41,599 nucleotides of DNA from Candidatus Nealsonbacteria bacterium (GCA_026396095.1 JAPLXK010000005.1:1-41599), one strand, 5' to 3'. Counted from the first letter of the stretch, positions 27,557-30,982 are shown. Notes: a model not told the origin generated them from the sequence alone. Numbers and translations are program-made.

Positions 27557-28885
27557 TTAACGGGGGGGCGGAGTTTCTCTCCAAGTGGGCGAAGAGAAGA
27601 AAACTGAAGAAGTTTTTTTGGTTATAGAACAAGTTTTGCCTCCGACCGTAGTCTCCAGTTTTATAGTATAGCCACCCGGACTGGGTAAATTATAAGTATG
27701 AGTTATAACCAATCCTGAATAGTCATTGGTTCCGTTATTGTCAATATCCCATATCCAAGATTTCGCTCCCGGATCAACATGAAAATCAGTTAAATCGGTA
27801 AATGTCACGGGCTTTCCGACAATAATTTTTAGCGGAAGCCAATCAAAATTAGGAGTAGGATAAGGGTAAGCAATGGTTGTGAAAGAAGGGCCCGTAATCC
27901 AATCAGATTCAACTTGCTGAATTGTATCGTCCCATACTTTTAGTCTCCAATAATACGTAACGCTACCATAGGCAAGATTTTTTGCGACATAAGACCCTCC
28001 TGTATTTGTCGCATGCTCAGATTCTACTGTGCTTGAAAAACCGGAATTTGTAGAGATTTGTATTTCATAAGCGCTTTGATTGTCGCTAGGATTAGCGGCT
28101 ACAAATGTCCATGACAAGCGAACAGGGGGATGAATAGAACTGGGACAATAATCAATTGGATTAGGCCCGCCAACAGTTAAATTACTAGCGCTCGGTTTTG
28201 GGCTAGAGAGCACAATCTTATAGTCTGCTATTGGCTGGCCAGCAGCAGGACAACCTGTTCCTCCCTCTGATTTACCATCACCATTAGTGTCACAATTTTT
28301 ACTGTTAAAACTTAGCCATCCAATTACGGCTGTACTAGGACCAGCATCGTGCCCTCCCCAAGCCCAATTTTTAAATTCCCTACTTATTGAATCCAAAGCT
28401 ACTCCGTAGTTGTTTCCTTTAAAACGTATCCATCCGTCCCAACTTCCCCTGTTCAGATTTAAAGCCCCGCTGCAGCCATTAGAAAAAACCGAACAGGCTC
28501 TTGCCCAGCCTGAAAGTTCATTGGTTGCCGAGCTAAACCTGGCTTCGCAAGGGCCCGCTGGACAGCCGCCCAATTGGGAGTCGTTGAAAGTAATCCAGCC
28601 GATATTTTCAGACCAAGCATAGCCGGAAAGAAGCCCATTCCCCAAATTCAAATCAATATTCACGCCGTAATCAACTGTTCCGCAGGTTCCCGGGTCGCTA
28701 CAATTAAAACTGACCCAACCTATATTTTCAGACCAGGCCCAACCGGAAACATTGTCATTTTTACCTGCTTTTGCCTTGTCAAAAGAAAAAAATGAAAATA
28801 CAAAAAAAAGTATTATTAAAATTAATGCTTTTTTATTATTTTTAATCATTATTTGGAGATTTTTAATTTTATTAAAAATTATCAT
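27557..28885 (-). CDS. Secreted Trp-rich repeat protein with FN3-like and PKD-like domains
   Basis: Signal peptide ending AKA|G, four SG(W/Y)AWSENIGW.SFN-like repeats, FN3-like segment (LSWTF..AYEIQIS..YYWRLKVWD), PKD-like segment (VTFTD..WIWDID..HTY), C-terminal PTWRETPP. Start at 28885 or 28849 is more likely than 28912. Confidence 0.8.
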   Translation of the reverse strand: MIIFNKIKNLQIMIKNNKKALILIILFFVFSFFSFDKAKAGKNDNVSGWAWSENIGWVSFNCSDPGTCGTVDYGVNIDLNLGNGLLSGYAWSENIGWITFNDSQLGGCPAGPCEARFSSATNELSGWARACSVFSNGCSGALNLNRGSWDGWIRFKGNNYGVALDSISREFKNWAWGGHDAGPSTAVIGWLSFNSKNCDTNGDGKSEGGTGCPAAGQPIADYKIVLSSPKPSASNLTVGGPNPIDYCPSSIHPPVRLSWTFVAANPSDNQSAYEIQISTNSGFSSTVESEHATNTGGSYVAKNLAYGSVTYYWRLKVWDDTIQQVESDWITGPSFTTIAYPYPTPNFDWLPLKIIVGKPVTFTDLTDFHVDPGAKSWIWDIDNNGTNDYSGLVITHTYNLPSPGGYTIKLETTVGGKTCSITKKTSSVFFSSPTWRETPPPR

Positions 28886-28889
28886 GCGG

Positions 28890-29486
28890 CTATGGATTAG
28901 CCGAAGAAGCATAAGCTTTACCTATTATATCATTTTTGCCAATCAGTCCAAATGCCGTGCTGTCGATTGATCCTCCTATAAGGTTTCCCATCACAAGAAA
29001 AGCGTTTTCCGGTATTTTATTGTTATAGTCCTTGGCGTATAAAGAAAGCATTCTGTATCCTCCCTGGCTTATTACATATTCCCTTCCTTGGGAATTTTTT
29101 AACACCTCTCCGTTGACCAATATATTCCAGCCGCCACTTGCTTCTTTTAACGAAAACGAGTCTCCTGCCACGCCTTTTACGATTTTTATTATCGGATTCT
29201 TGTTGCCGGCGTAATCAATGATAACCATATCTCCTTTTTTCGGATCGTTGCACTTGTAATATCCGAAATAAACAATTACTTTTTCTTCTGGCTCGATAAT
29301 GCCTCCGAGTGATGTCCCCTCTACCGTCCTCTCTTCAACAGATGTTACGCACTCAAGGGCCTGGATAGGTTCCTGTACGGCTTCCTGTTTGGGATTATTT
29401 TTAGAAAAAACAAGGATAAAAAATAAAATCAAGGCGGTTGGAAGAAATACTGCTAAAAATATATAAAAAAGCTTTTTATTTTTCAT
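28890..29486 (-). CDS. Signal peptidase I family (S26) protein, divergent
   Basis: One N-terminal TM, VEGTSL (Ser nucleophile), KGDMVII, IIKIVKGVAGD (Lys), FLVMGNLIGGSIDSTAFGLI. Confidence 0.85.
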   Translation of the reverse strand: MKNKKLFYIFLAVFLPTALILFFILVFSKNNPKQEAVQEPIQALECVTSVEERTVEGTSLGGIIEPEEKVIVYFGYYKCNDPKKGDMVIIDYAGNKNPIIKIVKGVAGDSFSLKEASGGWNILVNGEVLKNSQGREYVISQGGYRMLSLYAKDYNNKIPENAFLVMGNLIGGSIDSTAFGLIGKNDIIGKAYASSANP

Positions 29487-29530
29487 CCCTTCAATCCTTC
29501 TTTGTTATAGAATTGATGAATTGCAAGTGA

Positions 29531-30619
29531 TTATTGCGGGCAAGAATAAGCAAAACCCACATAGTATGCAGTATCCAAAGGAGCCGAGGCTGCATTGGCG
29601 AAAGTAACATCGGTAAAAGCATAGTTTAAAGTCGTGCTTAGAGTAGAACATAAGCTGCCTACTTTTGTGGTGGTGACGCTGGCAGACTTTATGCAATTTT
29701 TAGAAACTGAGTCATACAGTGGATGGTCGGCTGGACAATAAATACAGGTAAACTCAGAATCGTTATATTGGATATACGCCTGGCTTGCGCCTGCCGCGGG
29801 ACAGCGCGGTTCAGCATAAGCATATCCGTGAACACAATCCATCAACGGGTGTGCTGGATCAGTGGTAACTATGCAATAAGTGGCGCTATTAAGGTTGGGA
29901 TAAGCACCAGTCAGACAAAAATAATCACTGGCGTTAGGACAACAATTAGAAGGTAAATGCCAAGCTCCATCATCACCAACATATCCATATCCATACGGCC
30001 TACAAACGTTATAACCTGTTGGACAGTTCTCATAATCGCCGCTGCCCGTCGCTCGACAATTAATTCCAGTATAGCCAGGCCCGGTTCCTGGGTTTTGTGG
30101 AACAACTCCTTTGGGTCCTAAATTTATTACCGATTTAGTTGCCCTTGCCACCGGATCTGCACCTATTATTAATGTAGACGGCGGAGTAGAGCCACAAACT
30201 GTAATTTTTACCTGGCAGTTGGCTTTGGGCAGAGAAATGGGAATAGTTGAAATCACATGTGAGTCGCTTGAATAAATTGTACTTTGTCCTTGAAGCGGCA
30301 TATTGCCATATCCCCCTGACCCAAGCGCATCCACATAATCTTTATTCACCGCATCTGATCCGTTTACGGGCGTTAACACATCTGTTATCGCCTGATTATT
30401 AACGCTTATGCCGGAGTAGGCTGTAAAAAGCCCGTTAATTCCCAAGGGGCCGGCCTTGATCTGGATTCCTGTTCCCACGTTTATGGGAGCAGGAACATTG
30501 TTACTGGGCGCGGGAGCGCTTGGTTCGGTCCAGGCCAGAATCAGGTAGTTTAGGGAAAAAATCATCGCTAAAACTCCTAAAGATAAAACTAATATTTTAG
30601 GAAAATTTAATTTTGGCAT
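29531..30619 (-). CDS. Secreted Cys-rich fibre/adhesin-like protein
   Basis: Signal peptide ending ILA|W, WTEPSAPAPSNNVPAPINVG, PVNGSDAVNKDYVD neck-like motif, 16 Cys in the distal part. Confidence 0.75.
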   Translation of the reverse strand: MPKLNFPKILVLSLGVLAMIFSLNYLILAWTEPSAPAPSNNVPAPINVGTGIQIKAGPLGINGLFTAYSGISVNNQAITDVLTPVNGSDAVNKDYVDALGSGGYGNMPLQGQSTIYSSDSHVISTIPISLPKANCQVKITVCGSTPPSTLIIGADPVARATKSVINLGPKGVVPQNPGTGPGYTGINCRATGSGDYENCPTGYNVCRPYGYGYVGDDGAWHLPSNCCPNASDYFCLTGAYPNLNSATYCIVTTDPAHPLMDCVHGYAYAEPRCPAAGASQAYIQYNDSEFTCIYCPADHPLYDSVSKNCIKSASVTTTKVGSLCSTLSTTLNYAFTDVTFANAASAPLDTAYYVGFAYSCPQ

Positions 30620-30655
30620 ATTTTTGTTTGATTATTTAATTGTTAATTAATTTAT

Positions 30656-30982
30656 TTATTTAGATATTAATTGTTGGCGGAGCCTGTCCATTTCCTGTTT
30701 CTGTTTTTGAATTTCTTGTTCAGAAAGATCTTTTAGTCCCATTTCCTGGCGAAGATTATCTGTTTCTGTTTTTTGCTGCTTAATTTCTTGCTCAGAAAGA
30801 TCTTTTAAACCCATTTCCTTACGAAGACTATCTAGCTCTTGCTTTTGTTTATCTCTTAAGGTTGCCGGAGGAATAGGCAATTGCGCCTGTTCTTTTTTCT
30901 CATTTAAATAATAAATCAGGCCTGAAACAAGCAAAACAGCTATAATTATGACTCCGATTATCAATATTTTCTTCTTGTTCAT
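30656..30982 (-). CDS. Membrane-anchored protein with a 24-aa helical tandem repeat
   Basis: MNKKK plus TM, then LR(K/Q)EMGLKDLSEQEI(K/Q)(Q/K)QK.E.D. twice. Confidence 0.75.
   Translation of the reverse strand: MNKKKILIIGVIIIAVLLVSGLIYYLNEKKEQAQLPIPPATLRDKQKQELDSLRKEMGLKDLSEQEIKQQKTETDNLRQEMGLKDLSEQEIQKQKQEMDRLRQQLISK
30705..30850. repeat. 72-bp imperfect tandem repeat (2 copies)
   Basis: ATTTCTTG(T/C)TCAGAAAGATCTTTTA..CCCATTTCCT..CGAAGA.TATCT starts at 30711 and again at 30783. Confidence 0.9.

Follow-up and report, generated by a model that had tools for sequence, protein, structure and literature searches.

A four-gene cassette encoding a tail-fibre-like protein and an additional S26 peptidase in the type IV pilus locus of a Candidatus Nealsonbacteria genome

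Gene content of the cassette

The window, which is the whole stretch of 41,599 nucleotides that was analysed, corresponds to contig C44 (JAPLXK010000005.1:1-41599) of a Candidatus Nealsonbacteria genome (GCA_026396095.1) of 670 kb in 57 contigs, recovered from the metagenome of a freshwater sediment. Its minus strand carries a complete type IV pilus locus, with the genes in the order pilM, pilN, pilO, an unassigned open reading frame (ORF) of 99 amino acids, pilB, a receiver-domain gene, pilT, pilC, three pilin genes and pilD. After pilD, and also on the minus strand, lie four genes which we named g1, g2, g3 and g4, followed by four minor pilin genes, ligA and ftsW. These four genes form the cassette studied here: g1 encodes a small bitopic membrane protein, g2 a tail-fibre-like protein, g3 a paralog of the S26 signal peptidases, and g4 a secreted Trp-repeat protein (Wrep).

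The presence of four co-oriented genes between pilD and the first minor pilin had been pointed out in an earlier annotation made from the DNA alone (the sequence-only reading), and it was borne out. The upstream boundary of the cassette is pilD (31050-31916), which encodes an A24 prepilin peptidase (PF06750, 1.4e-32; PF01478, 7e-12), and the downstream boundary is the minor pilin set (25432-27541), whose four genes (26972-27541, 26421-26969, 25817-26401 and 25432-25794) show the N_methyl motif and GspH/GspI/ComG-type matches. A promoter-like site is located by pilD (31950-31923). The gaps between the genes of the cassette are of 15-67 bp and no terminator-like sites were found in them, which makes it plausible that the genes from pilD through the minor pilins are organised as a single operon. 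The description of two maturation routes, A24 and S26, in one locus is fair as far as gene content is concerned.

The first gene, g1 (30656-30982), encodes an N-in bitopic membrane protein of 108 amino acids with an N-terminal transmembrane helix (approximately 30905-30967) and two copies of a charged repeat, LR(K/Q)EMGLKDLSEQEI, at 30782-30826 and 30710-30754, with a spacing of 24 residues. Of 40 fibre loci, at least 12 have a gene of this type, coding for a transmembrane helix and charged repeats, directly ahead of the first fibre gene, and the products often contain (I/L)LxxLT(A/P)P motifs.

The second gene, g2 (29531-30619), encodes a protein of 362 amino acids with 16 cysteines. Its hydrophobic leader of 21 residues (30533-30598) ends in LILA29↓W30TEP and overlaps the motif A29-W-T-E-P33 (30521-30535; hereafter AWTEP), which is followed by a neck motif, DAVNKDYVDA (30326-30355), and by an all-beta tip with the 16 cysteines (29534-30301). 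Both this protein and g4 show putative cleavage motifs of the signal peptidase I type (ILA↓WTEP and AKA↓GKND, respectively). Pfam and NCBIfam searches of g2 gave zero matches. Nevertheless, the profile of the g2 family matches phage tail fiber gp9 (23sh, 1.2e-6) in the stalk and neck, as well as the Bdellovibrio mosaic adhesive trimer (MAT) fibre Bd2133 (8ond, 4.3e-5) and several tailspikes, the matches to fibres and tailspikes falling at profile positions ~36-132; furthermore, weak PHROG matches to tail fibre and head decoration proteins were found at g2 residues 67-102. The AlphaFold2 (AF2) monomer model shows a helix at residues 8-29, a confident all-beta tip at residues 110-362 and a stalk at residues 42-108 with low confidence, as expected of an obligate trimer. 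Foldseek found no structural relative of the tip in PDB or BFVD (E < 0.001). The protein is not a type IV pilin or pseudopilin by the usual models, with no match to N_methyl or TIGR02532, while the flanking pilins all match.

The conserved N-terminal module of the AWTEP proteins consists of the hydrophobic stretch of 21 amino acids and the pattern AW(T/Q)(E/G)P..PP.GN..P.N.G..Q.K.G. The genome has two more AWTEP genes (C28:11758-12926 and C33:9969-10739), with near-identical leaders (MEK(A/S)KSIALILGVLVMIFVVGYLAMAWTEP) and other Cys-rich tips; neither has an S26 paralog or pilus genes nearby, and the C28 copy is preceded by a g1-like gene (C28:12609-12926). In contig L029, five AWTEP genes around the S26 gene have a common leader and differing tips. 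The g2 tip was also found in the alignment behind other leaders, including the archaeal class-III pilin type (RGQTALEYL). In addition, three large proteins (L107:3052-4659, L111:4310-6388 and L121:5700-7448) show a prepilin leader, GF(S/T)L(A/I)E, together with a fibre neck and NVGIGT repeats, and appear to be pilin-fibre fusions; all three adjoin an S26 paralog, which in L121 is split into two ORFs. In a Falkowbacteria-type contig (L033:4058-8570), genes for bAvd, a reverse transcriptase and an S26 paralog come, in that order, after the gene for a fibre of 703 amino acids. The fibre begins with an AFTEK leader, contains NVGIGT repeats and a neck, and has a C-terminus resembling C-type lectins; it looks like the target gene of a diversity-generating retroelement (DGR) aimed at the tip. 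The fibre profile matches, the differing tips on one leader and the apparently DGR-targeted partner all fit the view of g2 as a modular, presumably trimeric adhesin with swappable receptor-binding tips.

The fourth gene, g4 (27557-28849), encodes a protein of 430 amino acids (P0128) with a signal peptide (28766-28849; AKA↓GKND), a W-domain (28205-28765), an FN3-like domain (27893-28126) and a PKD domain (27653-27820). The sequence-only reading was correct in describing a Sec-type protein with Trp-repeat, FN3 and PKD domains. The start of the gene required one correction: the long ORF (27557-28912) overlaps g3, and the most likely start is at 28849, as in databases, and not at 28912. The repeats are of the GWAWSENIGW type, the FN3-like domain corresponds to Ig_Rha78A_N, and the profile matches PKD and rhamnosidase-N Ig domains. 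The AF2 model (pLDDT 88.8) shows the N-terminal Trp-repeat domain followed by the FN3-like and PKD domains, and Foldseek of the whole chain gave only Ig, FN3 and PKD matches, with none for the N-terminal domain. As with g2, no match to N_methyl or TIGR02532 was found, and the C-terminal beta-propeller of PilY1 is absent both from the Pfam matches and from the model. The g4 family contains at least 1394 proteins; 71 of the 151 class genomes encode it, mostly in single copy. A sample of 40 Wrep loci from across the class showed a fibre gene no more than two genes away in about 21, and in 11 the genes that come after Wrep are three or four minor pilins or pilM-pilN-pilO-pilB. The proposal that Wrep is a substrate of the S26 paralog found no support: its signal peptide is ordinary, and the distribution of its family is much wider than that of the paralog.

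The S26 paralog and its gene neighbours

The third gene, g3 (28890-29486), encodes an S26 Ser/Lys signal-peptidase paralog of 198 amino acids (S26p), with a transmembrane anchor at residues 6-27 (29406-29471), Ser59 in the motif GTSL (29310-29312), Lys101 in the motif IIKIVKG (29184-29186) and box E (GNLIGGSIDSTAFGL, 28944-28988). It scores 60.3-60.5 bits on PF10502 (cut-off 22.9) and 64.2 bits on TIGR02227 (cut-off 47). A large protein collection contains 97 homologs of its subfamily, and the alignment of 64 of them shows that G57, S59, K101, D175 and G180 are invariant, and that S173 and the cysteine pair C46/C79 are nearly invariant. Since the catalytic residues are invariant and an N-terminal membrane anchor is present, g3 looks like an active, membrane-anchored Ser/Lys peptidase.

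As the sequence-only reading had expected, this peptidase is additional to the housekeeping enzyme. A canonical lepB was found in C35 (36196-36675) with 168.8 bits on PF10502, against about 60 for g3, which refutes the possibility that g3 is the only lepB of the genome. In the maximum-likelihood tree the g3 subfamily is placed outside the lepB clade, with a separating branch of 3.9 substitutions per site and a support of 99/100. All but one of 60 relatives have one canonical lepB (120-174 bits), and a g3-type gene was only found in this genome (G000) and in G040, that is, in two of the 61 genomes. A third S26 hit in the genome is weak and of the SipW type (C33:23072-23602). Two other assignments of g3 were rejected. 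It is not of the SipW or endoplasmic reticulum (ER) type: the SipW-type gene of the genome is elsewhere (C33), and the full catalytic region of g3 fits the bacterial model. Nor is it a conjugative TraF, with 24 bits against a cut-off of 100.25 (TIGR02771) and 18 against 156 (NF010459), and no transfer genes were found near it.

The SipW-type gene belongs to a cluster (C33:20293-26911) which contains genes for two proteins of ~420 amino acids with TasA/camelysin-type signals (AY(Y/F)NDTETSAGNIFTAG), followed by those for the SipW-like peptidase of 176 amino acids, a protein of 662 amino acids with a similar signal and a protein of 463 amino acids. The proteins encoded on either side of the peptidase gene have the signal AYxNDTETSxxNxFTAG. 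This reduced genome thus has three S26-family peptidases, two of which adjoin candidate fibre proteins.

Contexts of the S26 paralog were drawn from metagenome contigs, 48 species-representative genomes (GTDB) and class-level genomes. A neighbour was recognised as fibre-type when it showed at least one of three features: an AWTEP-type leader, the neck motif DAxNKxYVD or NVGIGT repeats. The classification used regular expressions and BLAST against the window proteins, and undercounts divergent fibres and minor pilins. The expected linkage of the S26 gene to WTEP and tail-fibre-like genes was confirmed, with a fibre-type gene as immediate neighbour in 27 of 47 paralog loci, which are species representatives and not phylogenetically independent samples; among the other loci, many are truncated at a contig boundary or show Cys-rich neighbours which were not flagged. 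Fibre-type genes are 30 of the 79 immediate neighbours and only three of the 236 genes at distances above 3 kb (odds ratio 47.6, Fisher p = 2e-17).

The paralog loci span several lineages of Patescibacteria, Omnitrophota, Elusimicrobiota, Bacteroidota and others, and DPANN archaea, some of the contigs being clearly archaeal since they carry eIF-1A, TFIIB, eIF-6, RFC and CDC48. The archaeal sequences are interleaved with the bacterial ones in the tree, a pattern indicative of horizontal transfer. The fibre and S26 genes of G040 lie between a HIT-family gene and tpiA, which are unrelated housekeeping genes, so the pair is a unit in its own right. The same pairing is also seen in archaeal contigs (L031/L090 and L182) and in L175, L178 and L181. 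No account of tail-fibre-like adhesins paired with an S26 paralog was found in a literature search of incomplete coverage.

One explanation for g3 is that it is a redundant second general signal peptidase, like the Sip paralogs of Bacillus, whose neighbours are coincidental. This agrees with its score above the cut-off of the signal-peptidase-I model, with some loci in which the paralog shows no recognisable fibre neighbour (L176, L180 and L035) and with G038, a relative without the paralog, where an AWTEP fibre gene is directly upstream of an ordinary, housekeeping-type lepB (L073:8509-10161, in G038:C3) which is 62% identical to the lepB of this genome. However, the ~48-fold enrichment of fibres beside the paralog, across phyla and in both prokaryotic domains, makes a simple redundant enzyme unlikely. 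Furthermore, the patchy distribution of the paralog, suggestive of horizontal transfer, travels with the fibre genes, and a reduced genome of 670 kb would hardly retain a purely redundant peptidase. We regard redundancy as very improbable.

In two Paceibacterota loci (L035:5462-8549 and L038:5415-8528) the paralog is directly downstream of an STT3/AglB-type oligosaccharyltransferase gene, in a region with a cluster of radical-SAM and glycosyltransferase genes, and in L038 it is followed by a gene encoding a Trp-repeat protein. Fibres may be linked in this way to protein glycosylation.

The core module and its proposed role

The g1, fibre and Wrep genes recur together in many genomes and are the widespread core of the cassette, which the S26 paralog joins only occasionally. 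The related contigs L027 and L029 repeat the order pilD-g1-fibre(s)-S26-Wrep-minor pilins, in agreement with the pilus-locus synteny that had been proposed, and in L136, L138 and L173 the arrangement is pilD, g1-like gene, fibre gene, Wrep, minor pilins and ligA, without the S26 paralog. The same minor pilin set follows the Trp-repeat gene in all five contigs, and, with the window included, at least six lineages retain this site of insertion, after pilD and ahead of the minor pilins. Where the paralog is absent, the slot between the fibre gene and Wrep can be occupied by a gene for a transmembrane protein of ~170-200 amino acids. The possibility that these slot proteins are degenerate S26 peptidases was rejected, since they do not match the hidden Markov model of the subfamily (scores below 5 bits). 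Three of them, membrane-anchored and of ~175-200 amino acids (L142:7325-7885, L070:10415-11026 and L138:6397-6927), are related to each other (BLAST, 2e-12 and 1e-3) and form a separate family.

We propose that the four genes encode a host-attachment fibre module within the pilus operon, in which g3 would be a dedicated peptidase comparable to SipW with TasA, and we give this proposal an even chance of being correct. According to it, g2 would be a trimeric adhesin similar to phage tail fibres, in which a short, neck-bearing stalk joins a conserved N-terminal module to a Cys-rich tip that varies between lineages; g1 would be its small bitopic partner, usually encoded ahead of the fibre genes; and g4, whose position resembles that of PilY1 and which in this class usually neighbours both fibre genes and minor-pilin or pilMNO genes, would be the likeliest link between fibre and pilus. 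The enzyme g3, which comes from a distinct, horizontally mobile subfamily encoded beside fibres, would cut the g2 leader at A29↓W30, so that the fibre is freed from the membrane for mounting on the outside of the cell, in analogy to SipW and its substrates TasA and TapA. In relatives without the paralog, either the housekeeping LepB would do the cutting or the fibre would remain anchored in the membrane. If the leader is a permanent signal anchor, the paralog, where present, would be the releasing enzyme.

A number of observations weigh against this proposal, some of them concerning the leader and its peptidase and others the pilus. The g2 helix has exactly 21 residues and ends in Trp, features that suit a permanent signal anchor no less than a signal peptide that is cleaved off. 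The paralog was found in only seven of 150 other genomes of the class and is missing from 143. AWTEP proteins are present in 18 of 61 related genomes, 16 of which have no paralog, so that the signal is not confined to genomes with the peptidase, as would be expected of a dedicated peptidase and its cognate signal; these genomes, together with the identical architecture of L136, L138 and L173, also contradict the view of the S26 gene as a fixed member of the cassette. Comparison of 20 AWTEP leaders from loci with the paralog and 24 from loci without it showed that they are indistinguishable, all with the hydrophobic region of 21 amino acids and AW(T/Q)(E/G)P, and the idea that leaders differ according to the presence of the paralog was rejected. 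Moreover, a few partner fibres have prepilin-type leaders (L107, L111 and L121) or, in archaea, plain Sec leaders, which is a poor fit to a peptidase specialised for one leader. Finally, a search of sequencing runs for the locus sequence matched three DNA runs, from freshwater sediment, and zero RNA runs. Thus, the linkage between paralog and fibre is strong, yet dependence does not follow from it because AWTEP fibres are common without the paralog. Since the leader is alike with and without it, the paralog is an optional add-on rather than an obligatory maturase, and the conserved N-terminal module must serve a purpose beyond recognition by a g3-type enzyme; it may be a membrane-proximal element for anchoring or docking.

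The same observations on leaders bear on a different role for the paralog, as a trans-acting Ser/Lys maturation protease or assembly chaperone which acts on the fibre elsewhere than at the leader. Comparable cases may be the S74 chaperone-protease that phage fibres carry in cis, TraF, which cuts TrbC at its C-terminus, and SipA, a chaperone-like protein of streptococcal pili. Such a role would accommodate partner fibres whose N-termini differ (AWTEP, prepilin GF(S/T)L(I/A)E and archaeal plain Sec), as well as an AWTEP leader which is unchanged in genomes without the paralog; in addition, the S74 domain is absent from g2-type fibres, as it is from the NS74 class of Bdellovibrio MAT fibres. On the other hand, g3 is built like a monoderm type I signal peptidase, with a transmembrane anchor, boxes B, D and E, and conserved Ser, Lys and Asp, and it scores above the signal peptidase I cut-off and far under that of TraF (24 against 100 bits). 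Furthermore, the fibre alignment shows no conserved internal or C-terminal cleavage motif, and the catalytic residues, which are lost in SipA-type chaperones, are invariant in the g3 subfamily. We consider a trans-acting role unlikely, and we rank leader cleavage and fibre release first, above both this role and the redundant peptidase, as a reading whose probability is close to one half.

With regard to the pilus, only four of the 47 paralog loci are near core pilus genes (pilB, pilC or pilM), and in relatives of the same family (G003, G011 and G038) the module of g1, fibre and Wrep is located beside clpP and RNase Y genes and not beside pilins. The claim of synteny with the pilins therefore stands for L027 and L029 and does not extend to these relatives or to most paralog loci. 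Both observations agree with a cassette that encodes a free-standing surface fibre, anchored or released like the MAT fibres of Bdellovibrio, which makes no contact with the pilus and owes its position to co-regulation or to the history of the locus. The fibre and S26 pair of G040, between its HIT-family gene and tpiA, and the two other AWTEP genes of this genome, which lie outside any pilus locus, point in the same direction. Against a free-standing fibre are the insertion point shared by at least six lineages, the 11 of 40 loci in which Wrep adjoins minor pilins or pilMNO, and the existence both of fibres fused to pilins and of g2 tips behind archaeal pilin-type leaders. We take the free-standing fibre as a tentative alternative of rather low probability. 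The linkage of g4 and the fibres to the pilus is real at the level of gene order, but not universal, and a physical coupling of the fibre module to the pilus, with fibres that would decorate it, is in our estimation about as probable as its absence.

Two features of the surrounding genes can also be described. In the window, ligA is found as two ORFs, one of 504 amino acids (23780-25294) and one of 127 amino acids containing the BRCT domain (23346-23729), and ftsW as two ORFs of 72 (23115-23333) and 282 amino acids (22310-23158), whereas the syntenic contig L027 has intact ligA (687 amino acids) and ftsW (361 amino acids); the splits in the window are likely frameshifts or assembly errors. Furthermore, two of the three pilin genes (32804-33259 and 32063-32542) encode proteins with near-identical N-terminal halves and conserved C-terminal blocks.

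To our knowledge, little is understood of the way in which ultra-small episymbionts, such as Patescibacteria and DPANN, recognise their hosts and hold on to them. Type IV pili have been implicated in cultivated Saccharibacteria, and the adhesive parts have been identified for a minority of lineages. One operon here unites a candidate adhesin with swappable tips, a widespread Trp-repeat protein associated with pili and a peptidase subfamily which travels with fibres, and their proteins are concrete and clonable targets for the study of host attachment by episymbionts. A more far-reaching and speculative interpretation, which we think is probably too broad, is that the cassette represents an undescribed accessory pilus system of ultra-small episymbionts, in which the peptidase would free the fibres from the membrane, Wrep would load them on the minor pilin tip, the host-recognition tips would be swappable and sometimes diversified by DGRs, and the fibre and peptidase pair would be mobile across Patescibacteria, DPANN and other phyla.

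Comparison with known systems

The tapA-sipW-tasA operon of Bacillus subtilis encodes a dedicated signal peptidase for a biofilm fibre. The TasA-like bundling pili of archaea also have their own peptidase (PMC9245690). Both resemble the cassette in having an extra S26 peptidase, besides the housekeeping enzyme, directly beside fibre proteins with a characteristic N-terminal signal. They differ from it in several respects. SipW is an S26 peptidase of the ER/archaeal type, whereas g3 is of the bacterial P-type Ser/Lys class and forms its own subfamily; TasA is a jelly-roll subunit, whereas the partner in the cassette is similar to tail fibres and probably trimeric; and, unlike in the SipW system, the AWTEP signal is widespread without the peptidase. 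In addition, this genome has its own SipW and TasA/camelysin-like cluster on another contig (C33).

The TraF-TrbC pair of IncP plasmids is also an S26 paralog encoded with a filament protein, TrbC being matured by TraF. However, TraF trims the C-terminus of a cyclisable pilin, and the cassette contains neither conjugation genes nor a cyclisable pilin. The PilY1/PilC-type adhesins are comparable to g4 and g2 as Sec-exported non-pilins encoded directly upstream of a set of GspH/I/J/K-like minor pilins, although g4 lacks the beta-propeller and vWA domains of PilY1 and its association with the pilus is one of gene position.

The closest described analogue of g2 is the MAT fibre family of Bdellovibrio bacteriovorus (Caulton et al. 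2024; PMC10769870). Both are surface proteins similar to tail fibres, in which a Sec-type leader and a conserved N-terminal module precede a stalk and C-terminal tips that can be swapped, and in both cases there are several paralogs per cell, in organisms which must recognise other cells. Nevertheless, g2 does not belong to the MAT family proper. It has 362 amino acids compared to roughly 1000 in the MAT fibres, and its N-terminal module has ~40 residues (AWTEP...) instead of their beta-rich N-terminal domain of ~130 amino acids, which is absent from the g2 model, where only ~75 residues separate the leader from the neck. Furthermore, the g2 tips are Cys-rich, and neither a dedicated peptidase nor a location in a pilus operon is described for the MAT fibres (PMC10769870). 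The system found in the window combines a known logic, that of a dedicated signal peptidase encoded beside a fibre protein, with fibre adhesins similar to the MATs.

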